A DNA stretch of 64,000 bases from Eledone cirrhosa. Taxonomy: Eukaryota. This document shows positions 35,183 to 62,605 of the stretch, piece after piece. The notes below the pieces were generated by a model. The model was not told the origin of the DNA. It made no database searches and saw only the letters and a list, made by a program, of their open reading frames with translations. The translations under genes and the position numbers were made by a program. The stretch covers positions 11,532,001-11,596,000 of the forward strand of contig OZ024743.1 of the NCBI GenBank assembly GCA_964016885.1, read 5' to 3'. Numbering within the stretch: position 1 is the first letter of the stretch; each line of letters opens with the position of its first letter.

Positions 35183-38100
35183 GATGTAGTATTAACTTGG
35201 ATATTTACCATGCGACCCTCAGTTTCTACCTCACAATTCCCCCCCCCCCCCCCCACACACCACCATAGTCTATTCGACCAATCAAACCTAGCATGCCATT
35301 TCCACTGCTGCTGCTGCTACTACCTGCCTAACTAACTCTCTCCTCCTCTGGCGCATCCCAACACACCCTGCCATTACCCCACCACCACTGTCCTTCTAGC
35401 CCTCAATTTTCCCACCGTTAGGGATGGATGAGCTGGGAATACACGAGCAACTCTGAATCAATAGATGAAATATGAATCTGCGAGCTACCAAGCACCCACG
35501 TGAAGCGCCAACCCAGAGACCCTCCCCTACGAGTGTCGACAAATGCCCAAAACTCCGAGTTGGTACCATCAATGTAGGCTCAATGAAAGGAAGAGCAGGA
35601 GAAATCGTAGAAATGCTAGAGCGAAAGGAAGTTGATGTATGCTGTGTGCAAGAGACTAGATGGAGAGGAGGGTCTGCTAGAATCCTTGTAGGAAAAAGCC
35701 AGTGCTACAAATTTTTCTGGGTGGGAAATGACGATGGGATGGGTGGTGTAGGTATACTATTAGCTGACAAGTGGGTAGATAAAGTAATCTCAGTGTACAG
35801 GGTAAATGCAAGAATCATTAAACTCAGACTAGTCCTGAATAAGACAATTACCACAATAATATCAGCTTACGCACCCCAATCGGGGCTGCCAGACGAACTT
35901 AAGGATAGGTTTTACGAGTCCCTAATACACACTACTGCTCTAACAGACGACAAGGACTTCCTAATCATTGCAGGAGATTTTAACGGACACGTAGGTAAAC
36001 ACTGCGACGGCTTCAATAGAGTACATGGAGGCCATGGAGTTGGCACAAGGAATGAGGAAGGATTCAGACTTCTAGAATTCTGCGACGCCAATGACATGTC
36101 GATATGTAACACAAACTTTAAAAAAGCCGACAACCACCTGATCACCTATAGATCAGGGGAGCACTCTAGTCAGTTAGATTTTATCCTCATCAGAGGACGT
36201 GACAGATGGACGGTCGTAAACACAAAAGCCTTCCCTAGTGAGGAATGTACATCCCAACATAGCTTAGTTGTCAGCGACCTCACGGTCAGAACTAGACGAG
36301 CCCTGAAACAGAGGCCAACCTGGAGAAGAAAGATCTGGAAGCTGAAAGTCCCCTCAACCAGTAACAGATTTAAAGATATTTTACTCAACGCCTACGACAG
36401 TAAAGAAGAACAGATAGAGACATTTAACGTAGAAGAGAACTGGGAGTTCCTAAAAAATAACTTACTAGAGGCGACGGATGAGGTTTGTGGCTGGAGTAAG
36501 ACCTCAAGCAGGAGGAGAGTGACTTGGTGGTGGAACAATAAGGTAGATGAAGCAGTCAAGGCCAAGAGACAGGCATGGAAAGAATGGAAGAACGGGGGGA
36601 GCAGGGTACATTACATAGAGACCAAGAGGGAAGCTAGGCGACAAGTATACTTAGCTAGGAGGGAAGCAGAGGATAGAAAATTCAAGCATGTTTTACAACG
36701 TGAGGACCAGAAACAGGAGGTATTCAAGATTGCGAGGCAGTGTGTCAGAGATAGTTGTGATGTCATTGGAGAGAAGTGTATCCGGAATGATAAAGGTGAG
36801 CTTGCCCTCACAAGTGCTGAGAAGAAAGATGCATGGAAGAGTCATTATGATAGATTACTAAATGAGGAGAATGCATGGGAAGAAGAGACCCTACCCCACG
36901 TAGACCCTATAGAGGGACCAGCAGTACAAGTCAGCGGCAGCGTAGTAAGTAAGGCAATCAGAGATATGAAGATAGGGAAGGCAACCGGTCCATCGGGTAT
37001 AGCTGCCGAGATGCTGAAGGCATCTGGGTCTGTAGGTCACACTATAACCACACGTATCGTTAACCAGGTAATACTAGAGGGGGCCATACCAAAAGATTGG
37101 TGCAGTAGCATCATTGTCAACTGCTACAAAGGTAAAGGCGATGCACTAGATAGAGGAAACTATAGAGGTATAAAGTTGATGGACCAGGTCATGAAAGTAA
37201 CAGAAAGAGTTATAGCACAGCTGATTAGGGACCGGGTGAATATAGACGAGATGCAATTTGGGTTTGTTCCAGGGAAAGGCACCACTGATGCGCTCTTCCT
37301 TGTGAGGCAATTACAGGAAAAGTACCTAGCTAAAAGTAAGCCACTCTACTTGGCATTTGTCGACCTTGAGAAAGCCTTTGACAGAGTTCCACGTGCAGTA
37401 ATCTGGTGGGCTCTTAGAAAACTAGGAGTAGATGAATGGCTTGTGAAAGCGGTACAAGCCATGTATAGGGGAGCAGTCAGCAAAGTTAGGATTGGCAATG
37501 AGTATAGCGAGGAATTTAGCGTACAGGTTGGGGTCCACCAGGGCTCTGTTCTTAGCCCTCTCCTGTTCATCATAGTCCTGCAGGCAATAACGGAGGAGTT
37601 TAAGACCGGATGCCCATGGGAACTCCTGTATGCTGATGACCTCGCACTCATAGCTGAATCTATGGTAGAACTAGAGAATAAATTCCAAACCTGGAAGCAG
37701 GGACTAGAGAGAAAGGGCCTCAAAGTCAACATGACAAAGACTAAGGTCCTTATAAGTAGACGAGAAAACAGAACCCAGATCCCCTCAGGGAAATGGCCTT
37801 GCTCAGTATGTAGGAAAGGTGTAGGTAGGAACTCCATTCTTTGCCCCAAATGCAAACAATGGGTACACAAGAGATGTAGCGGGATCTCAGGAAGCTTAAT
37901 TAAGAATGTAGGATTCACATGCAGCAGCTGTGCTGAAACAGCAAGCAAACAGCCACAGGAAACAAGTACCACCAATCTCTGGGAGGGCCCTGTAGAAACA
38001 GTAGACAGCTTCTGCTACCTAGGTGACCGAATTAGCAACGGAGGTGGGTGCTCAGAAAGTACAATAACTAGGGTAAGAACGGGATGGAAGAAGTTTAGGG

Positions 38101-38887
38101 AACTACTACCACTGCTAGCTGCAAAAGGCTTCTCCCTCAGAATGAAAGGCAGACTGTATGATGCGTGTATCCGAACAGCGATGTTGCATGGTAGTGAGAC
38201 CTGGGCGCTGAAGGTGGAAGACTTACGTAGATTAGAGAGAAACGAAGCCTGCATGCTCCGATGGATGTGTAACAGTAATATACGTGAACGACAAAGCATA
38301 AATGAATTGAGAGAGAGACTGAGCATAAGAGGAATCAAATGCTGCGTGCAGGAGAGGCGGTTACGCTGGTATGGACATGTGATGCGTATGAAGGATGACA
38401 GCTGCATAAAAAGGTGCAGAGCACTAGAAGTTGATGGAAACCGCGGAGTGGGGAGACCCAAGATGACTTGGGATGAGGTGATAAAAGCCGACCTTACCCA
38501 ACTACACCTCTCAAAGTCAATGACACACGACCGTGACTTCTGGCGTCACGCAGTAATACAGGGTACCCGACCTCCCATGGGTACATGCTGAAGCATATAA
38601 ACAACATGCCCCCCCCCCCCACCGCAAGGTGGTCGTGGAGGTGCCACGGCAAAAAAAGCACCCAGCCCACACTGTAAAGTGGACGTGTAGGCGCCACGAA
38701 AAAGCACCCAGCACTCACTGTAAATGAGGTTGGTGTTAGGAAGGGCATCCAGCTGTAGAAATCAAGCCAGATCAGTTCCTGTATGAGCAAGGCATGGTCA
38801 GCCGACCAGACACTGCCCACAACAGGACAACCCGTCTAACCCATGCTAGCGTGGAAGAACGGACGTAAAACGGTGATGATGATGATG

Positions 38888-41130: not shown

Positions 41131-44118
41131 TTGGACAACATTGTGACGGCTACGACGAAATCCATGGAGGCTATGGGTTTGGTACTAGAAATGAGGAAGG
41201 CTCCAGAATCCTGGAATTCTGTGATGCAAATAACCTAACTATCTGTAACACTAACTTCAAAAAACGTGACATCACCTGATCACCTATAGATCCGGGGAAC
41301 ACACAAGCCAGGTAGATTATATCCTTACCAGAAGACGTGACAGAGTGTCTGTTGTAAACACTAAATCCCTCCCCCATGAAGAATGCACCTCCCAACATAG
41401 ACTGATAATTAGCGACCTCATAGTCAGGACGAGACGTACTCGACAGCAGAAGAGGACTATCCTCAGGAGAAAAATATGGAAGCTAAAGGACCCCACAGCC
41501 AGGAATAAATTTCAAAGCATATTACTTGATGCTTTCGACAGTAAGGAAGAACATTTAGAGTTGGACAATATAGAGGGAGAGTGGGAATTTCTGAAAGCAA
41601 ACCTGCTGTTGGCGACAGACGAAGTCTGTGGCTGGAGCAGGCCTGTAGGCAGGAGGAGAGTAACATGGTGGTGGAACAGTAAGGTGGAGGGGTCAATTAA
41701 GGCCAAAAAGCAGGCTTGGAAAGTATGGCGGGATGGGGGAAGTAGAGAAGACTATCAAGTGGCCAGGAGGGAAGCTAGGAGACAAGTGTACTTAGCAAGA
41801 AGGGAAGCTGAGGAAAGAAAGTTCAAGCATGTTCTACAACGCGATGACCAAAAACGTGAGGTGTTCAGGATTGCTAGGCAATGCATCAAGGAAAACCGTG
41901 ATATTGTCGGGGAGAAGTGTGTACTAAACGACGATGGCACACTTGCCATCACCGACGCTGATAAGAAGGTAGCTTGGAAGTGTCACTATGAAAGGCTACT
42001 AAATGAGGAGAATAAATGGGAGAAAGACAGTCTCCCCTATATCGACCCAATAGAGGGACCAGCAGTGTTAGTCGAGGGGAGTATAATAAGTAAGGCAATC
42101 AAGGATATGAAGACGGGTAAGGCGGCTGGGCCTTCGGAAATAGTTGCTGAGATGCTGAAGGCATCTGGCACGGTGGGACACACCATGGTCACCCGCATAG
42201 TTAACCAAGTCGTACAGAATGGGGTTGTTCCGAAGGACTGGCGTAGCAGCATCATCGTTAACTGTTATAAGGGTAAAGGAGACGCCCTAGATAGGAGTAA
42301 CTATAGAGGCATTAAATTAATCGACCAGGTCATGAAGGTCACGGAAAAAGTAATAGCACAACTAATCAGAGAGAGAATTGACCTAGATGAAATGCAGTTC
42401 GGGTTTGTGTCAGGCAAAAGTACCACAGACGCTCTTTTCATTGTACGACAACTACAGGAGAAGTACCTAGCTAAAGGTAAACCCCTCTACTTAGCTTTTG
42501 TCGACTTGGAGAAAGCCTTCGACAGAGTCCCCCGCTCCATTATCTGGTGGGCTCTTAGAAAACTAGGCGTTGACGAATGGCTTGTGAGAGCTATACAAGC
42601 CATGTATAAAGAAACAGTCAGCAAGGTTAGAATTAACAACGAATATAGTGAAGAGTTTAGCGTAAAAGTTGGCGTCCATCAGGGCTCTGTTCTCAGCCCC
42701 CTACTATTTATTATTGCCCTTCAGGCTATAACAGAGGAGTTCAAGACCGGCTGCCCATGGGAACTCCTATACGCAGATGACCTGACACTCATAGCGGAAT
42801 CAATAGCCAAGCTAGAGAAGAAATTCCAAACATGGAAGCACGGCCTAGAATCAAAAGGCCTTAAAATTAACCTGGCTAAGACTAAAGTTCTAGTTTGTAG
42901 GAAAGAAAATAAGGCAGCGGTCCCTTCTGGGAAATGGTCGTGCTCGGTGTGTAGGAAAGGCGTAGGTAGAAACTCCATTTTGTGTCCCAAATGCAAAGTA
43001 TGGGTGCATAAAAGATGTAGTGGGATCACAGGTAAGCTGACTAAGAACATAGATTTTACATGTGGCCGGTGATCTGGTGCAATAAGTAGCAGCAAGTGCC
43101 CACAAAATACTAGCTCTTTCAACTGCGCAGAGGGTTCTATAGAAATAGTGGACAGCTTCCGTTACCTGGGTGACAAAATCAGCAGTGGGGGAGGGTGCTC
43201 TGAAAATACAGTAGCTAGAGTCAGAACTGGATGGAAAAAGTTCAGAGAGCTTATACCACTATTAGCCGCTAAAGGGTTCTCCCTAAAAATGAAAGTCAGG
43301 TTGTACGATGCCTGCATACGAACAGCAATGTTGCATGGCAGTGAGACCTGGGCATTGTGTGCAGAGGATATACGCAGACTAGAGAGGAACGAAGCTTGCA
43401 TGCTCCGCTGGATGTGTAATAGTAATATACGTGAACGGCAAAGCATAAACGAACTAAGGAAAAAATTAGAAATAAGAGGGATCAGATGTTGTTTACTCGA
43501 GAGAAGGCTACGTTGGTATGGTCACGTGATGCGCATGAAGGACGATAGCTGTATAACAAAGTGCAGGGCAATAAAGATAGACGGTAGCCACGGAATAGGC
43601 AGACCCAGAAAAACCTGGGACGAGCTGATAAATTCCGACCTCACACACTTACACCTCACCAAGACAATGTCACTGGACCGAGACCTTTGGCGGTACTGAG
43701 TAATAGAGAAGACCCGCCTTACCTAAATACAAAGTAAAACCTACTACAGTCAGTAGGCATCTCTAACAAAATACACCCCCCGTCCCACCACCCCCACCCC
43801 ATCCACACCGCCCCTTTCAATGTAAAGTTATGTTGGTGCCACAACATCCAGGCCGAAACAAATGAGATCGTGTAGGTGTCACGTCAAAAAAACACACAGT
43901 TCACGCTGTAATGTGGCCGTCTAGGCAACACGGTAAAAACCTCCCAGCCCCACACTGTAAATGTGGTTGGTGTTAGGAAGGGCATCCAGCTGTAGAAAAC
44001 CCGCCAGATAGTCCTATGCGAGCAAGATAATCACTCTTGCCTCAAGTGGGAAAACCCCCGTCCAAACCCATGCAAGCGTGGAACACGGACATTAAACGTT
44101 GATGATGATGATGATGAT
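41131..44118 (+). pseudogene. RTE LINE family A, 5'-truncated and inactivated copy
   Basis: 1-bp deletion at ~41270 versus the 6737 copy, TGA at 43070 (TGT in the 21507 copy) and at 43697; LYADD RT core and Zn finger present; (GAT)n tail. Confidence 0.92.
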
Positions 44119-46510: not shown

Positions 46511-47228
46511 GTATATATATATATGTATGTATATATATATATCTATATATATATATATATGTATGTATGTATATATGTATGTATGTATATATGTATATAT
46601 GTATGTATGTATATATATATATGTATGTATGTATATATATATGTATGTATGTATATATATATGTATATATATATGTATATATATGTTTATATATATGTAT
46701 GTATGTATATATATATATGTATGAATGTATATATATATGTATGTATGTATATATATATATGTATGTATGTATATATATATATGTATGTATGTATATATAT
46801 ATGTATATATGTATGTATATATATATGTATATATATGTTTATATATATGTATGTATGTATATATAAATGTGAATCCCAGTTGATCCATGAGCTTTTAAAC
46901 AAGACCAGCTGTGCCTAGAGCTATGCAGATGACTACATACGCATAATGGATATCGCGCCCACACAGTCACCAGTACTGTTCATCCTGTTGTATGTATGTA
47001 AATATCCGTGCGCGGGATATCCCTGAGTACATTTTCTTGACCATCAATTGTTAATCGATTGTTTGTTAATTAGGCAGGAATATACCATTGTGTCTGTGCT
47101 AATCCTATGTTGCTGTGTGTGTGTAAAGTATCCGAGCGCGGGATATCCCTGAGCTAATTTTGCCTGACTGTTAATAGTGTTTTGATTTCTTGTTAATTAG
47201 GCAGGAATATATATTATTATGTCTTTGT

Positions 47229-47384
47229 TAATCCTGTATCAATAATTTTATAATAATTTTTTGTGATAATCCTGTATCAATAATTTTATAATAATTTTTT
47301 GTGATAATCCTGTATCAATAATTTTATAATAATTTTTTGTGATAATCCTGTATCAATAATTTTATAATAATTTTTTGTGATAAT
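47229..47384. repeat. 38-bp minisatellite x4, preceded by two diverged ~126-bp repeats (47003, 47129)
   Basis: TAATCCTGTATCAATAATTTTATAATAATTTTTTGTGA at 47229, 47267, 47305 and 47343; TATCCG.GCGCGGGATATCCCTGAG twice. Confidence 0.9.
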
Positions 47385-48275
47385 ACATTGTTAGATTACT
47401 GAAGCTACCTTATACCTTCTTAAAAATACATTTTATAATTATTGTCTTTTTGCTTATGTATTTTCTTATTCACCACTTTCTTTAATCTTGCCCAACTTGA
47501 TAAACTCCTTGAATTGCTCCCTAATTAAATTACTTAAATTACTTAAATTATTGTATCTATTATGCCTAAGTTGTATCTGTTGAAGCAGCCCTTTGAAAAT
47601 TCCTCGGATATCCCAAATACCGTAATTTTTAACTTTTAATGTATAATTTTCCTCAATTCGTTTTTATATATATTAAAGGCTCTCTAAAATTTTAATTCTT
47701 CGAAGGGTCTCTCAGAAGAAGTTCCTATTAAAAATATTAAAGGGGCCTTTTCTGAGAGAATTATAGAAGGCTCTTTGAATTAACCTTTAATTGATTAGTT
47801 TCTTTCAACTTAGTAGGGAATATCAAAACTTTGTAAGTTTTCTGAAATTTGTAAACGTGATCTCCGGGGAAGAAGGTTTTTTTCTTTCGGAAAACATTTT
47901 TTTCTCTAGAAGGAATTTCATAGGAAACTTTATATATTTTTTAGGGAAACTTTATATTTTTATTTTTTATTTTATTAGCCTCTTAATTTCTTCCAGTCTA
48001 GTAGGTTTATTGGAGCCTGTAAGCTTTATGCACTTATTGAGGGATTTTCTAAGGTGCTTCTACGGGACCCCAAGTCTTTTAGTTTACTGTTAATGCGTAA
48101 ATTATATATTATCTAATTTTTAAACTTCAATCCCTGACCCCGACAACTAATATAAAAGAGCCCCCTTAGAATATAGACCCCAACTATACAAGCGGAGTTG
48201 CTGATGTATACCACAATTTCTAACTGCTAGCCTTGAGTGATACGTTGATGTAAATAATGATCTTACAATCACATG

Positions 48276-48333
48276 TTATATGCCTTGAAAAGTCCCACCA
48301 TGTGGTCGGACGAAACGGCTGTCGGCAATAAAC
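48276..48333 (+). ncRNA. Variant type I hammerhead (U3-A8 core), Penelope-pLTR-like
   Basis: TGCC-TTGAAAA-GTCC CACCATGTGGTC GGAC-GAAA-CGGCT-GTC^GGCA ATAAAC: stem I TGCC/GGCA, stem II GTCC/GGAC, minimal stem III, GUC triplet, directly followed by AATAAA. Confidence 0.7.
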
Positions 48334-48754
48334 TTGTTATAATGTCATAATAGTTCCTTTGTTCTTTTTCACTAATATTTCTGCTCTGCGTATACGCATA
48401 GAGCTTAACTAGCTACCGTCACATATTTGGTAGGTCAGACGTGATCATCGCGATTCACATACAACCTACCATACATCTTACTTATATATATGTATGTATA
48501 TATATATGTATGTATATATATATATGTATATATAGATATATATATGTATATAGATATATATATGTATATATATATATATATATATGTATGTATATATATA
48601 TATATATATATGTATGTATATATATATATATATGTATGTATATATATATATATATATGTATGTATATATATATATGTATGTATATATATATATATGTATG
48701 TATATATATATGTATGTATGTATATATATATATGTATGTATATATATATATATG

Positions 48755-48801
<47 letters not shown>

Positions 48802-48827
48802 ATATAAGTATATATATGTATGTATAT

Positions 48828-48868
<41 letters not shown>

Positions 48869-48898
48869 TGTATGTATATATATATATGTATGTATATG

Positions 48899-48930
<32 letters not shown>

Positions 48931-48935
<5 letters not shown>

Positions 48936-50849
48936 ATAAATGCTCTGAAATAGCGATATATATGTGAATATAGACATAGAATATTCGAAAATATTCTGTA
49001 TGTTTATAATAAACATTTTGAAGACCTAATCGCTATAGAATAGAATACGTCACGTATTACAATTAGATTCTCGATAAAAGCAAGGGAAGTAATCTACGCG
49101 TTTCATTCTTGTTAGAATTCATCAGGACCACATATCCAGTGCTTTTATCGAGAATGACACAGCTAGAGACTTATAGAATACTTAGCTGTGTACAGGAACT
49201 GGTTTGAAAGAGCGGTTGCCGGTCCGGCAGAAATTAGAAATTGGAATAAATGCTCTGAAATAGCGATATATATGTGAATATAGACATAGAATATTCGAAA
49301 ATATTCTGTATGTTTATAATAAACATTTTGAAGACCTAATCGCTATAGAATAGAATACGTCACGTATTACAATTAGATTCTCGATAAAAGCAAGGGAAGT
49401 AATCTACGCGTTTCATTCTTGTTAGAATTCATCAGGACCACATATCCAGTGCTTTTATCGAGAATGACACAGCTAGAGACTTATAGAATACTTAGCTGTG
49501 TACAGGAACTGGTTTGAAAGAGCGGTTGCCGGTCCGGCAGAAATTAGAAATTGGAATAAATGCTCTGAAATAGCGATATATATGTGAATATAGACATAGA
49601 ATATTCGAAAATATTCTGTATGTTTATAATAAACATTTTGAAGACCTAATCGCTATAGAATAGAATACGTCACGTATTACAATTAGATTCTCGATAAAAG
49701 CAAGGGAAGTAATCTACGCGTTTCATTCTTGTTAGAATTCATCAGGACCACATATCCAGTGCTTTTATCGAGAATGACACAGCTAGAGACTTATAGAATA
49801 CTTAGCTGTGTACAGGAACTGGTTTGAAAGAGCGGTTGCCGGTCCGGCAGAAATTAGAAATTGGAATAAATGCTCTGAAATAGCGATATATATGTGAATA
49901 TAGACATAGAATATTCGAAAATATTCTGTATGTTTATAATAAACATTTTGAAGACCTAATCGCTATAGAATAGAATACGTCACGTATTACAATTAGATTC
50001 TCGATAAAAGCAAGGGAAGTAATCTACGCGTTTCATTCTTGTTAGAATTCATCAGGACCACATATCCAGTGCTTTTATCGAGAATGACACAGCTAGAGAC
50101 TTATAGAATACTTAGCTGTGTACAGGAACTGGTTTGAAAGAGCGGTTGCCGGTCCGGCAGAAATTAGAAATTGGAATAAATGCTCTGAAATAGCGATATA
50201 TATGTGAATATAGACATAGAATATTCGAAAATATTCTGTATGTTTATAATAAACATTTTGAAGACCTAATCGCTATAGAATAGAATACGTCACGTATTAC
50301 AATTAGATTCTCGATAAAAGCAAGGGAAGTAATCTACGCGTTTCATTCTTGTTAGAATTCATCAGGACCACATATCCAGTGCTTTTATCGAGAATGACAC
50401 AGCTAGAGACTTATAGAATACTTAGCTGTGTACAGGAACTGGTTTGAAAGAGCGGTTGCCGGTCCGGCAGAAATTAGAAATTGGAATAAATGCTCTGAAA
50501 TAGCGATATATATGTGAATATAGACATAGAATATTCGAAAATATTCTGTATGTTTATAATAAACATTTTGAAGACCTAATCGCTATAGAATAGAATACGT
50601 CACGTATTACAATTAGATTCTCGATAAAAGCAAGGGAAGTAATCTACGCGTTTCATTCTTGTTAGAATTCATCAGGACCACATATCCAGTGCTTTTATCG
50701 AGAATGACACAGCTAGAGACTTATAGAATACTTAGCTGTGTACAGGAACTGGTTTGAAAGAGCGGTTGCCGGTCCGGCAGAAATTAGAAATTGGAATAAA
50801 TGCTCTGAAATAGCGATATATATGTGAATATAGACATAGAATATTCGAA
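48931..50849 (-). repeat. 310-bp tandem array (6 full units + 59 bp), each unit with a type I hammerhead ribozyme on the minus strand (retrozyme-like)
   Basis: Unit start TTGGAATAAATGCTCTG recurs at 48931, 49241, 49551, 49861, 50171, 50481 and 50791; units look identical by eye. Minus strand reads GTGGTC-CTGATGA-ATTCT AACA AGAAT-GAAA-CGC-GTA^GATTAC. Confidence 0.95.
49067..49155 (-). ncRNA. Type I hammerhead ribozyme, 310-bp family (core 49089-49131; further copies at 49399, 49709, 50019, 50329, 50639)
   Basis: Canonical CUGAUGA and GAAA boxes; stem II ATTCT/AGAAT with AACA loop; palindromic stem III ACGCGT; GUA triplet; stem I GTGGTC/GATTAC, extended by a perfect 16-bp inverted repeat ATTCTCGATAAAAGCA (49067-49082) / TGCTTTTATCGAGAAT (49140-49155). 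Confidence 0.9.
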
Positions 50850-51051
50850 GTAGTCGTGGAGGTTCCACGGCAAAAAAGCACCCAGCCCACACTGTAAAGT
50901 GGATGTGGCGGTGCAGCGGGAAAAAAGCACCCAGCACTCACTGTAAATGAGGTTGGTGTTAGGAAGGGCATCCAGCTGTAGAAATCAAGCCAGAATCAGT
51001 TCCCGTCCCACCCTTGCAAGCAGGGAAAAAGTGGACGTAAAATGAAATGAT
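50850..51051 (+). mobile_element. RTE family B-like 3' UTR fragment abutting the 310-bp array
   Basis: Matches 38630-38780 (CACCCAGCCCACACTGTAAAG, GGTGTTAGGAAGGGCATCCAGCTGTAGAAATC). Confidence 0.75.
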
Positions 51052-51385
51052 GTGTGCTCCCAGCTGTGGTCACCCCCATAGTATCAAACTAACCATGGAG
51101 CTTGAAGTATTCCAATGAAGCTACACCAAGAAGGTTGCCATGATGGAGATAAACTACTGGGAGAGTCTAAAAGAACTGAAACTCTACTCCTCGGAATGAA
51201 GACGGGAGAGATATGCAATGATATACATATGGAAAATCCTGGGGGACTAAGACCAAACTTTCGCATCGAGAGCTGGACCAATTCTCGAACAGGATGTCAC
51301 TGTGTGGTACCAAAGGTCCCGTCTTCCACATCTAGAATCAGGAGCAGCTATTGCAATAGCCTGGGGTTCAAAGGCCCTCAACTTG
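51052..51385 (+). mobile_element. Degenerate CR1-like fragment
   Basis: Homologous to the reverse complement of 56645-56970 (TACTGGGAGAGTCTAAAAGAACTGAAACTCTACTCC). Confidence 0.7.
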
Positions 51386-51456
51386 GTTTTCAAAATTTAA
51401 ATTTGTGTTTCCTATTCATCAATGCTTCAAGTAAGCTATAAAACTCTGTTATATTT

Positions 51457-52305
51457 CATCATCATCATTGTATGTCAGTTCTTCTACGCTAGCATGGGTT
51501 GTCCTGTTGTGAACAGTGTCCGGTCGGCTGACCTTGTCTTGCTCATACGGGAACTGATTCTGTTTTGAGTTCTACAGCTGGATGCCCTTCCTAACACCAA
51601 CTTCATTGACAGTGAGTGCTGGGTGCTTTTTTTTTTTTTTGCCGTGGCACCTCCACGACCACTTTGCAGTGGAATGATAGGGACCCCAGTCCTATCATCT
51701 CATTTCTACAGCTGAGTAAACTGGAGCAATGTGAAATAAAGTGTCTTGCTCAAGGAAACAACACATCATCCGGTCCAAGAATTAAACTCACAACCTTTCA
51801 ATTGCAAGCCCAATGCTCTAACCACTGAGCCATGTGCCTTCTATTGTTGGCAATGTTAGGTCAGGTGACCATGTCTTGCTCATAAAGAACTGATTTGGGC
51901 TTGGTTTCTACAGCTGGATGCCCTTCCTAATGCCAAGCTCATTTACAATGAGTACTGGGTGTTTTTTGTTGTGATTCCTCCACGACTACTTTACAGTGTA
52001 GACTGGGTGTTTTTTACCGTGTCACCATCACGACCACTTTACAGTGTTTCGGCCTGTTCTCATGAAAGATATATTGGCGGGTGGGATGGAGTGGTGCATA
52101 CCGTATGTATGTTTCAGCCTTGGCCTGGGCCCGTGGGAAGTTGGGGTTTCTGTATTACCTCATAACGCCAGAGATCTTGGTCCTGTGTCATTGCCTTTCA
52201 GAGGTGCAATTGGGCAAGGTCGGCTTTTATCACTTCATCTCAAGTCTTTCTGGGACTTTATGTAGCTGTCATTCTTCATACGAATCACATGTCCATACCA
52301 ACATA
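51457..52305 (-). mobile_element. Older RTE-like 3' fragments plus a tRNA-derived SINE head (51690-51840)
   Basis: CTACAGCTGGATGCCCTTCCTAA motif twice; minus strand 51840-51690 has A-box TGGCTCAGTGG, B-box-like GTGAGTTTAATTC and TCCTTGAGCAAGACACTT. Confidence 0.65.
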
Positions 52306-52580
52306 ATCTCTTTTGAATTTGCCACCGACGCAGTAGGCAGTGATTTTATCAATGGCTTGGAATTAGTCCTCGCTTTGCTTTTTCCATCCACTGAATTATT
52401 TTTGTATAAGTTCCCTGTGTCCACGTATTGCCTGGAAACTTAGCTGAGAATAGACTTCCCTGGTGACGAAAGGCTTCTCCGTGCTCTCTTCGGATAGTAC
52501 GTTTAATCCCTTTCAGAAACTAATTAGTTGGGAGTGAAATTTAAGTAAGTAAGTTAATTTTATAATTTTCTTATTTTACG

Positions 52581-52656: not shown

Positions 52657-55600
52657 TGAAATATGAATCTGCGAGCTACCAAGCACCCACGTGAAGCGCC
52701 AACCCAGAGACGCTCCCCTACGAGTGTCGACAAATGCCCAAAACTCTGAGTTGGTACCATCAATGTAGGCTCAATGAAAGGAAGAGCAGGAGAAATCGTA
52801 GAAATGCTAGAGCGAAAGGAAGTTGATGTATGCTGTGTGCAAGAGACTAGATGGAGAGGAGGGTCTGCTAGAGTCCTTGTAGGAAAAAGCCAGTGCTACA
52901 AATTTTTCTGGGTGGGAAATGATGATGGGATGGGTGGTGTAGGTATACTACTAGCTGACAAGTGGGTAGATAAAGTAATCTCAGTGTACAGGGTAAATGC
53001 AAGAATCATTAAACTCAGACTAGTCCTGAATAAGACAATTACCACAATAATATCAGCTTACGCACCCCAATCGGGGCTGCCAGACGAACTTAAGGATAGG
53101 TTTTACGAGTCCCTAATACACACTACTGCTCTAACAGACGACAAGGACTTCCTAATCATTGCAGGAGATTTTAACGGACACGTAGGTAAACACTGCGACG
53201 GCTTCAATAGAGTACATGGAGGCCATGGAGTTGGCACAAGGAATGAGGAAGGATTCAGACTTCTAGAATTCTGCGACGCCAATGACATGTCGATATGTAA
53301 CACAAACTTTAAAAAAGCCGACAACCACCTGATCACCTATAGATCAGGGGAGCACTCTAGTCAGTTAGATTTTATCCTCATCAGAGGACGTGACAGATGG
53401 ACGGTCGTAAACACAAAAGCCTTCCCTAGTGAGGAATGTACATCCCAACATAGCTTAGTTGTCAGTGACCTCATGGTCAGAACTAGACGAGCCCTGAAAC
53501 AGAGGCCAACCTGGAGAAGAAAGATCTGGAAGCTGAAAGTCCCCTCAACCAGTAACAGATTTAAAGATATTTTACTCAACGCCTACGACAGTAAAGAAGA
53601 ACAGATAGAGACATTTAACGTAGAAGAGAACTGGGAGTTCCTAAAAAATAACTTACTAGAGGCGACGGATGAGGTTTGTGGCTGGAGTAAGACCTCAAGC
53701 AGGAGGAGAGTGACTTGGTGGTGGAACAATAAGGTAGATGAAGCAGTCAAGGCCAAGAGACAGGCATGGAAAGAATGGAAGAACGGGGGGAGCAGGGTAC
53801 ATTACATAGAGACCAAGAGGGAAGCTAGGCGACAAGTATACTTAGCTAGGAGGGAAGCAGAGGATAGAAAATTCAAGCATGTTTTACAACGTGAGGACCA
53901 GAAACAGGAGGTATTCAAGATTGCGAGGCAGTGTGTCAGAGATAGTTGTGATGTCATTGGAGAGAAGTGTATCCGGAATGATAAAGGTGAGCTTGCCCTC
54001 ACAAGTGCTGAGAAGAAAGATGCATGGAAGAGTCATTATGATAGATTACTAAATGAGGAGAATGCATGGGAAGAAGAGACCCTACCCCACGTAGACCCTA
54101 TAGAGGGACCAGCAGTACAAGTCAGCGGCAGCGTAGGAAGTAAGGCAATCAGAGATATGAAGATAGGGAAGGCAACCGGTCCATCGGGTATAGCTGCCGA
54201 GATGCTGAAGGCATCTGGGTCTGTAGGTCACACTATAACCACACGTATCATTAACCAGGTAATACTAGAGGGGGCCATACCAAAAGATTGGTGCAGTAGC
54301 ATCATTGTCAACTGCTACAAAGGTAAAGGCGATGCACTAGATAGAGGAAACTATAGAGGTATAAAGTTGATGGACCAGGTCATGAAAGTAACAGAAAGAG
54401 TTATAGCACAGCTGATTAGGGACCGGGTGAATATAGACGAGATGCAATTTGGGTTTGTACCAGGGAAAGGCACCACTGATGCCCTCTTCCTTGTGAGGCA
54501 ATTACAGGAAAAGTACCTAGCTAAAAGTAAGCCACTCTACTTGGCATTTGTCGACCTTGAGAAAGCCTTTGACAGAGTTCCACGTGCAGTAATCTGGTGG
54601 GCTCTTAGAAAACTAGGAGTAGATGAATGGCTTGTGAAAGCGGTACAAGCCATGTATAGGGGAGCAGTCAGCAAAGTTAGGATTGGCAATGAGTATAGCG
54701 AGGAATTTAGCGTACAGGTTGGGGTCCACCAGGGCTCTGTTCTTAGCCCTCTCCTGTTCATCATAGTCCTGCAGGCAATAACGGAGGAGTTTAAGACTGG
54801 ATGCCCATGGGAACTCCTGTATGCTGATGACCTCGCACTCATAGCTGAATCTATGGTAGAACTAGAGAATAAATTCCAAACCTGGAAGCAGGGACTAGAG
54901 AGAAAGGGCCTCAAAGTCAACATGACAAAGACTAAGGTCCTTATAAGTAGACGAGAAAACAGAACCCAGATCCCCTCAGGGAAATGGCCTTGCTCAGTAT
55001 GTAGGAAAGGTGTAGGTAGGAACTCCATTCTCTGCCCCAAATGCAAACAATGGGTACACAAGAGATGTAGCGGGATCTCAGGAAGCTTAATTAAGAATGT
55101 AGGATTCACATGCAGCAGCTGTGCTGAAACAGCAAGCAAACAGCCACAGGAAACAAGTACCACCAATCTCTGGGAGGGCCCTGTAGAAACAGTAGACAGC
55201 TTCTGCTACCTAGGTGACCGAATTAGCAACGGAGGTGGGTGCTCAGAAAGTACAATAACTAGGGTAAGAACGGGATGGAAGAAGTTTAGGGAACTACTAC
55301 CACTGCTAGCTGCAAAAGGCTTCTCCCTCAGAATGAAAGGCAGACTGTATGATGCGTGTATCCGAACAGCGATGTTGCATGGTAGTGAGACCTGGGCGCT
55401 GAAGGTGGAAGACTTACGTAGATTAGAGAGAAACGAAGCCTGCATGCTCCGATGGATGTGTAACAGTAATATACGTGAACGACAAAGCATAAAGGAATTG
55501 AGAGAGAGACTGAGCATAAGAGGAATCAAATGCTGCGTGCAGGAGAGGCGGTTACGCTGGTATGGACATGTGATGCGTATGAAGGATGACAGCTGCATAA

Positions 55601-56088
55601 AAAGGTGCAGAGCACTAGAAGTTGATGGAAACCGCGGAGTGGGGAGACCCAAGATGACTTGGGATGAGGTGATAAAAGCCGACCTTACCCAACTACACCT
55701 CTCAAAGTCAATGACACACGACCGTGACTTCTGGCGTCACGCAGTAATACAGGGTACCCGACCTCCCATGGGTACACGCTGAAGCATATAAACAATATGC
55801 CCCCCCCCCCCCCCACCGCAAGGTGGTCGTGGAGGTGCCACGGCAAAAAAGCACCCAGCCCACACTGTAAAGTGGACGTGTAGGCGCCACGAAAAAGCAC
55901 CCAGCACTCATTGTAAATGAGGTTGGTGTTAGGAAGGACATCCAGCTGTAGAAATCAAGCCAGATCAGTTCCTGTATGAGCAAGGCATGGTCAGCCGACC
56001 AGACACTGCCCACAACAGGACAACCCGTCTAACCCATGCTAGCGTGGAAGAACGGACGTAAAACGGTGATGATGATGATGATGATGAT
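52657..56088 (+). mobile_element. RTE LINE family B, second near-identical copy with most of the 5' UTR missing
   Basis: Nearly identical to 35466-38892; (GAT)n tail at ~56067-56088; preceded by TA/CA microsatellite. Confidence 0.93.
52663..55782 (+). pseudogene. RTE family B ORF with early nonsense codon (CGA>TGA at 52747); open from ATG 52774 (1002 aa)
   Basis: Aligns to 35472-38591; a restart at 52774 would lose the first endonuclease strand (VGTINV). Confidence 0.85.
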
Positions 56089-61924: not shown

Positions 61925-62605
61925 TCTATGCGTAATATACGTAAAGATAGAGAATTGCGGGCACTACAACGCTATTAACTGTCATATTTGTTGGTGAAAA
62001 AAATGTGATTATAAAACTTAAATTTATGAATGACTTGTTTTCTAATTAACTTAAATTTGTTTTCTAATTTGGCCCTTTTAAGGGCCACCTATATTTTCAT
62101 TTAAGTAACTCCACTTACATCGATATGCTTTATAACCATGACTTGTTTTCTATTTGTTTTCTAATTTGGTACTTTTAAGTCTTCCCTCTCTCTCTCTTCC
62201 CTATCTCTCCTCTTCCCTCTCTCTCTAAAAAAAAACGCGTGAAAACTCCACTTACGCGTGGTAGTAATACGGAAATAAACGATGTTGACGAGTGACGTCA
62301 CCTTCGCCTGTTTTCCACTGGACTGACAGCTAATAGCGTTGTAGTGCCGAAAATATAGTAAAAGGTACCGGCATTTACCGGATGTTTTTAGTGTATATAG
62401 TGAATGCGCATGCACTGGAGTCAACTTCAAGGGAGATAATTCAATTTGCTATTTGAACTGTTTTATTCACAAGGGGATTTGGTAGAAATAGCAGCTAAAT
62501 ATTTCTCGAATTAATATCTCCCATCTCAAAAGTGAAAGGAGACAGTAAAATTAGGTCCTCTAAACAAAACAGACAAGATGGTCATGGATATGACGACATT
62601 GATTA

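Follow-up and report, generated by a model that had tools for sequence, protein, structure and literature searches.

Non-LTR retrozymes of metazoans, described from coral, mussel and axolotl, are tandem arrays of 170–400 nt units that are low in GC and lack an open reading frame (ORF) or long terminal repeat (LTR), with one type I hammerhead ribozyme per unit and a short palindromic stem III (PMC7229834). Penelope-like elements (PLEs) are characterized by an adjacent inverted truncated copy, a tail of 30–40 bp at one end and a bias towards (TA)n (PMC8557442), and a purified PLE protein cleaved and extended both strands and began at two internal RNA sites bounding the tail (PMC11167929). Rolling-circle copying by a PLE enzyme has already been proposed (PMC7229834; PMC4209133), and a preprint treats retrozymes as non-autonomous PLE derivatives (bioRxiv 10.64898/2026.07.22.740005). 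Here we analyzed a tandem array of a 310-bp, hammerhead-bearing unit in the genome of Eledone cirrhosa, located in a window of 64,000 nucleotides (assembly GCA_964016885.1, contig OZ024743.1, positions 11,532,001–11,596,000; positions below are those of the window). This array is a single arm of a young non-LTR retrozyme, with genomic copies that mostly consist of two head-to-head arrays in TA repeats. We consider it likely that it was inserted by a Penelope-like (Neptune-type) reverse transcriptase (RT)-endonuclease that used both cut DNA ends to copy a predicted RNA circle of 310 nt.

The array occupies positions 48931–50849 (start called at 48930 or 48931) with its RNA sense on the minus strand, comprises 6.19–6.2 copies of the 310-bp period and, as an arm A only, is truncated at its inner end at unit position 59. 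The original prediction had reported six identical units with a minus-strand type I hammerhead in each, and both statements held: there were zero differences among the six full units, and the motif GTGGTC-CTGATGA-ATTCT AACA AGAAT-GAAA-CGC-GTA^GATTAC was present in 6/6 of them. No type I motif arose in 20,000 dinucleotide shuffles of the unit scanned on both strands, and the hammerhead pattern had no match in 100 shuffles of the window. The motif, at 49089–49131 (minus strand) in unit 1 and recurring every 310 bp, is made up of a 6-bp stem I, CUGAUGA, a 5-bp stem II with an AACA loop, GAAA, and a stem III of only 2 bp within the palindrome ACGCGU. By sequence it has the features that define type I, namely the core CUGANGA, GAAA, UH, three helices and an open stem I; its cleavage triplet is GUA and the predicted cut, 49095^49094, agrees with the site proposed originally.

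No ORF of 200 or more residues lies over the array, which is non-coding by this test. LTR structure was not seen and the motif is type I, so that the array does not have the features of plant LTR retrozymes (a type III hammerhead in LTRs, a primer-binding site and polypurine tract, and a 4-bp duplication). In sequence, it is a metazoan non-LTR retrozyme as that class is defined, with dispersed, tandem, non-coding units that each have an intact type I hammerhead. A further likeness is the U.U at the base of stem II in HHR_Amex2 of axolotl (PMC7229834), which is the commonest allele here. The differences from the described metazoan elements are that here two head-to-head arms have fixed ends in (TA)n, and that circles have been shown there (PMC7229834), whereas here they are predicted from sequence. 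The words “inverted” and “microsatellite” are absent from the main text of that paper.

The two-arm structure was apparent from 59 other loci, which consisted of 19 best BLAST hits, 16 consecutive loci from a listing of matches to an exact ribozyme 25-mer, and 24 picked from a listing of end A, the outer end at unit position 1 (48931) that is used at the window locus. Two head-to-head arrays were present at 51/59 loci and none were tail-to-tail; by sample, the two-arm form was found at 17/19 of the best hits, 11/16 of the consecutive loci (which had not been selected by their ends) and 23/24 of the end-A picks. The remaining eight included four one-armed loci, two with irregular two-arm structures, one interrupted by an N gap and one leaving the fetched stretch. 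Arm A starts at unit position 1–2 and arm B near position 33–37 (end B, ~48965), placing the outer ends about 34 nt apart, and from the outer-end junctions at the examined loci the tail between these two fixed ends corresponds to 48931–48964 (minus strand) in the window. The inverted truncated copy and 30–40 bp tail that mark PLE-mobilized elements were therefore found at the same 51/59 loci. An exact (TA)n-TTGG junction was present at 45 of the 51 two-arm loci, and across the 3.0 Gb genome the exact (TA)n-to-end A junction occurred 1,015 times (reversed control, 0), which gives at least 1,015 insertions and a bias of the family towards TA-rich microsatellite targets. At one locus outside a microsatellite (L147) a 15-bp target duplication could be read, duplications being unreadable within (TA)n.

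The centers of these loci differ from their outer ends in being variable. Among 50 simple central junctions, 33 had an overlap of 0–9 nt, four had an overlap of 16–31 nt and 13 had 1–73 extra bases. The inner ends of 109 arms were uniform over the unit (KS p=0.24), with 2/109 within 5 nt of the ribozyme cut (3.9 expected), and the arms crossed the cut site 583 times. Based on these two observations, the template must have been continuous across the cut, as either a circle or an uncleaved multimer. Arms reached 28 to more than 30 units. Neither arm is a copy of the other, because either may be the longer (arm B was longer at 21/51 loci) and sporadic variants were not mirrored, only 2/98 of them being found in both arms.

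Variants fixed throughout a locus behaved in the opposite manner to sporadic ones, occurring in both arms in 99/99 variant-by-locus tests, although tests within one locus are not independent. There were 21 haplotypes among the 60 loci and sporadic variants amounted to 0.05%. The repeated fixation of new variants across whole loci, together with the 28 to more than 30 units in an arm, favors a circular template over a multimeric one. Each insertion still shows both of its start sites, its single template haplotype and its stop points because the family is young, with 0.05% sporadic divergence over more than 1,000 loci. The proposal that the array is retrozyme-like and recent is thereby supported, and its suggested origin by rolling-circle reverse transcription is favored by the ends, cut-site crossings and haplotypes across the genome. 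The class was already known; the insertion footprint is the new part. The original prediction had overlooked the two-arm, Penelope-type structure, the (TA)n targeting, the remnant one-armed state of the window locus and what stem III implies about dimers.

For the enzyme, a PLE is the partner class to which these features point. Likenesses to Neptune/Naiad-type insertions (PMC8557442; PMC11167929) are the inverted 5′-truncated copy, the 30–40 bp tail, the (TA)n target and an internal start downstream of the hammerhead; the retrozyme differs in being non-coding and only 310 nt long, in having many complete turns per arm, and in showing no similarity to the PLE ends examined. The E. cirrhosa genome holds many elements with RT and GIY-YIG domains and a cysteine linker. 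Such a linker is a feature given for Neptune (PMC8557442). One Neptune-type family is very young: among the matches listed, 92/150 score as identical over 181 aa, many of them in open frames of 775 aa. Its 4,202-bp unit has two overlapping frames (476 and 775 aa) and two fixed ends 50 nt apart, and units from six tandem or inverted loci were 99.1–100% alike. The loci of this family (L120–L132, including G000:C4:322.58 Mb, C1:147.23 Mb and C26:20.69 Mb) comprise seamless tandem and head-to-head arrays, and in five loci that differ from the reference copy the variants were common to both arms. The fixed ends of the young Neptune are 127 and 177 nt beyond the cut of its own hammerhead, compared to 130 and 164 nt for the retrozyme. 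The young Neptune may itself have been copied from a circle. Reading by eye also revealed two-arm insertions in (TA)n for several other PLE and small non-coding families (L070–L089), each family having its own tail length, from about 33 to 62 nt.

The preprint reached the same partner class (bioRxiv 10.64898/2026.07.22.740005), and the two studies differ in that its case, in the text cited, was built on co-distribution and phylogeny and suggested local tandem amplification, whereas the junctions described here indicate arrays made at insertion. A search of mostly open literature, with supplements and Repbase outside it, yielded no report of a two-arm (head-to-head, twin-primed) retrozyme footprint, and within the same limits none that combined octopus and hammerhead ribozyme with such a footprint. 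L1 twin priming uses a pair of primers on a single RNA, and its product has an inverted 5′ arm joined through microhomology. The insertions described here differ in lacking poly(A), in using fixed internal sites for both starts and in having two multimeric arms.

A more detailed interpretation, which we hold to be slightly more probable than not, is that these insertions are records of double rolling-circle reverse transcription, in which one PLE dimer cuts both strands of the (TA)n and two RTs, sharing one RNA circle made by the hammerhead, begin about 34 nt from each other and each go round it up to 30 or more times. In the main interpretation, given above as likely, the minus strand would be transcribed as a multimer in which adjacent hammerheads pair through the ACGCGU palindrome and cut, after which a monomer would be ligated into a circle. 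The observed junctions suggest that the enzyme would then nick both (TA)n strands and begin a pair of cDNAs at internal positions of one RNA, both fixed and about 34 nt from each other, 130 and 164 nt downstream of the cut. As its footprint shows, each arm continues across the cut site for a variable number of units and stops at a random phase, and the two inner ends are joined, in most cases with an overlap of 0–9 nt. At the window locus, the second arm and 166 host bases would have been lost during or after insertion.

This last step was read from the host sequence. The array lies in an internal (TA)n/TATG microsatellite (48483–48930), the insertion target, of a dispersed repeat whose left part spans 46866–48482 (+) and whose right part spans 50848–52310 (+) and begins with RTE 3′-UTR-like sequence. 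Comparison with a near-identical paralogue identified an AA microhomology (50848–50849) joining the array to the host repeat. This paralogue is 132 kb away, has flanks 99.2–99.8% identical on both sides, does not have the array and contains a different insert; relative to it, the window locus is without a second arm, the right-hand (TA)n and 166 host bases. Two further paralogues also do not have the array and have another insert at the same place. We considered whether the RTE-like right flank represented a template switch and rejected this because the flank runs on into the older host repeat. The host repeat is itself PLE-like, having a hammerhead-like motif at about 48280–48329 and two fixed ends about 104 nt apart, and its internal (TA)n carries different nested insertions in four paralogues.

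Several observations weigh against insertion by a PLE enzyme from a hammerhead-made circle. The window locus is one-armed, its second arm having probably been lost or never completed. No hammerhead was matched by Rfam at the gathering score, the best sub-threshold model being Hammerhead_HH9 (21.5 bits against a cut-off of 52, E=0.079), and the pair probability of stem III in the predicted monomer circle was 0.0. The unit had no sequence similarity beyond TA-rich words to the PLE ends at 53 PLE loci, a small sample of the PLE families in this genome, and the young Neptune has a tail of 50 nt rather than 34 nt; for these two reasons we infer a partner class and assign no particular PLE family. 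We dismissed a 26-nt AT-rich resemblance of the unit to the young Neptune end (E=0.09) as a low-complexity match. PLE hammerheads can be weak (PMC11167929; PMC4209133), and mutation of the hammerhead did not impair PLE insertion in vitro (PMC11167929). At L170, one variant was limited to a single unit per arm, the outermost, a pattern that fits a multimeric template; at three of the 60 loci (L152, L153 and L172) recurring variants suggested later local duplication or conversion. These four loci are evidence that templates can also be multimeric, or that local exchange can follow insertion.

Many of these points would be explained by Penelope-type twin priming on a long RNA that is read through an array already in place and left uncleaved, with the hammerhead weak or irrelevant to insertion. 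A linear multimer of this type would also cross the cut site, and it accounts equally well for the two arms and the tail; the instability of stem III in the monomer, the L170 pattern and the unimpaired insertion of hammerhead mutants are in its favor. We nevertheless regard it as unlikely, though deserving of consideration, because each of the 21 haplotypes is fixed in nearly every unit of its locus, which would need repeated bottlenecks of a single unit, and because arms reach such lengths. It also does not account for the avoidance of the catalytic core by inherited variants, and in other animal retrozymes the RNA is mainly circular (PMC7229834).

Amplification in place, in which a single landing of a monomer or PLE end is followed by expansion through unequal crossover as in satellite DNA, has been proposed for retrozymes (bioRxiv 10.64898/2026.07.22.740005) and finds some agreement in the recurring variants of the three long arrays. 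It fails to give inverted arms, ends 34 nt apart, random inner phases or haplotypes shared between arms (51/59 loci), and sporadic divergence is only 0.05%. We conclude that local amplification is largely refuted, very improbable as the origin of the arrays and at most a secondary process.

Equally hard to credit is mobilization by the abundant RTE LINEs, or by a DNA fold-back process, with the inversion resulting from copying back on the first cDNA. Intact-looking RTE ORFs are present in the window and beside (TA)n, and the array adjoins RTE 3′-UTR-like sequence, but that flank belongs to the older host repeat. In addition, a self-comparison of the window for matches starting outside the array found none between the unit and the RTE copies, and on inspection the unit has no RTE (GAT)n tail; against copying back, either arm can be longer and sporadic variants are not mirrored. 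The RTE-type ORFs of the window (endonuclease, RT and a PHD-finger match) are located at 35469–38591 (+), 52750–55782 (+), 6808–8841 and 41270–43699, and two of them look intact and are 99.4% identical to each other.

An assembly artefact from collapsed or fold-back reads is the least credible explanation, since, while long-read assembly can generate both palindromes and perfect identity, the outer ends are offset by a fixed distance, the flanks differ, the inner phases differ between arms, the haplotypes are locus-specific and the unit was also identified, with 1–2 differences, in contigs of four runs (of six listed) from four studies. Three of these runs hold single 340-nt contigs, a length that equals 310 + 30 and that a tandem array would yield as readily as a circle.

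The folding of the unit bears on how the hammerhead would act. The monomer had a fold z-score of -4.05 and the ribozyme domain one of -4.84, and in the predicted circle the pair probability was mostly above 0.85 for stems I and II and for a 16-bp helix (49140–49155 with 49067–49082, minus strand). This helix was claimed to close the hammerhead; its pairing is indeed perfect and it prolongs stem I, yet an internal loop sets it apart from that stem, so the closing is not direct. Five inverted repeats listed originally are all in the sequence, although three cannot pair fully as written because their loops are 1 nt. The plus strand folds at least as stably as the minus strand (-75.5 versus -67.9 kcal/mol, both as circles), and for this reason our choice of strand was made from the motif alone and not from folding energy. 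Hammerheads that cleave as dimers have been described as marked by a short palindromic stem III (PMC4209133). The 2-bp stem III in ACGCGU therefore implies that this hammerhead would cut mainly as a dimer, and two copies of the palindrome are predicted to pair at -9.5 kcal/mol. The hammerhead-model search suggested in the original prediction thus gave a divided result, as the pattern was found in all six units and the Rfam models scored below cut-off. Rfam likewise missed a second hammerhead repeat in the window.

This second repeat (34361–35026, minus strand) is young and unrelated to the first, with a 485-bp unit, a long stem II, a 10-nt palindromic stem III and (TA)n flanks. Fragments of it are present at 5653–5830, 16188–16365 and 27593–27770, and at least 172 genomic matches include tandem copies, some of them head-to-head, with fixed ends at unit positions of about 181 and 287 (a 106-nt offset). 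A 466–468 bp tandem repeat with internal TA-rich tracts (4729–5556, 15266–16093 and 26197–27492) had no hammerhead by motif scan and is part of a larger block with a spacing of about 10.5 kb. The only Rfam match of the window at the gathering score was a histone 3′ UTR stem-loop at 62066–62110 (+).

A genome-wide search for copies, also suggested originally, identified 14,690 occurrences of the exact ribozyme 25-mer (reversed control, 0), which at 310 bp each amount to about 4.5 Mb. The pattern for the second end occurred 1,187 times, a count that includes some internal units and misses other ends. Inherited variants in the sampled loci affected 19 positions, of which seven were inside the 43-nt ribozyme and none (0/19) fell on the 14 core and stem III positions, a modest avoidance (p ~0.05, calculated by hand). 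The seven comprised N7, loop II, stem I changes that preserved pairing, and replacement of A-U by U.U, the majority allele, at the stem II base. The proposal that paralogues would preferentially conserve the core is consistent with this pattern and with the retention of helices in two older subfamilies, B and C, which are 69–78% identical to the present subfamily (A) over aligned parts and have the same ends and helices. Stem II, the long helix and three 3′ hairpins pair across A, B and C despite changes on both sides (a comparison of nine rows, seven of them from B, with no valid shuffle control), and the position of the 16-bp helix is retained in B and C with other sequence. Stems I and III, which MAFFT misaligns between subfamilies, were read by anchoring on the core. 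Subfamily B has a unit of about 315 nt (1,420 candidates, 40 scored), and examples such as L096, L101 and L111 have a GUU-triplet hammerhead with U.U at the stem II base and a 4-bp stem III around a single A.

In the literature cited here, the enzyme that moves animal retrozymes, and whether their arrays arise by rolling-circle copying or by local expansion, have been matters of hypothesis (PMC7229834; PMC4209133; bioRxiv 10.64898/2026.07.22.740005). The E. cirrhosa family provides a template of 310 nt, predictions exact to the nucleotide and candidates for intact PLE proteins, and therefore both the link between retrozymes and PLEs and the unexplained tandem and inverted structure of PLEs become directly testable. 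For the genome itself, the family adds many multi-kilobase palindromes. If the double rolling-circle interpretation is correct, the same footprint in the 4.2-kb Neptune would point to a general origin for the tandem, inverted and tail structures of PLEs and for the arrays of animal retrozymes.
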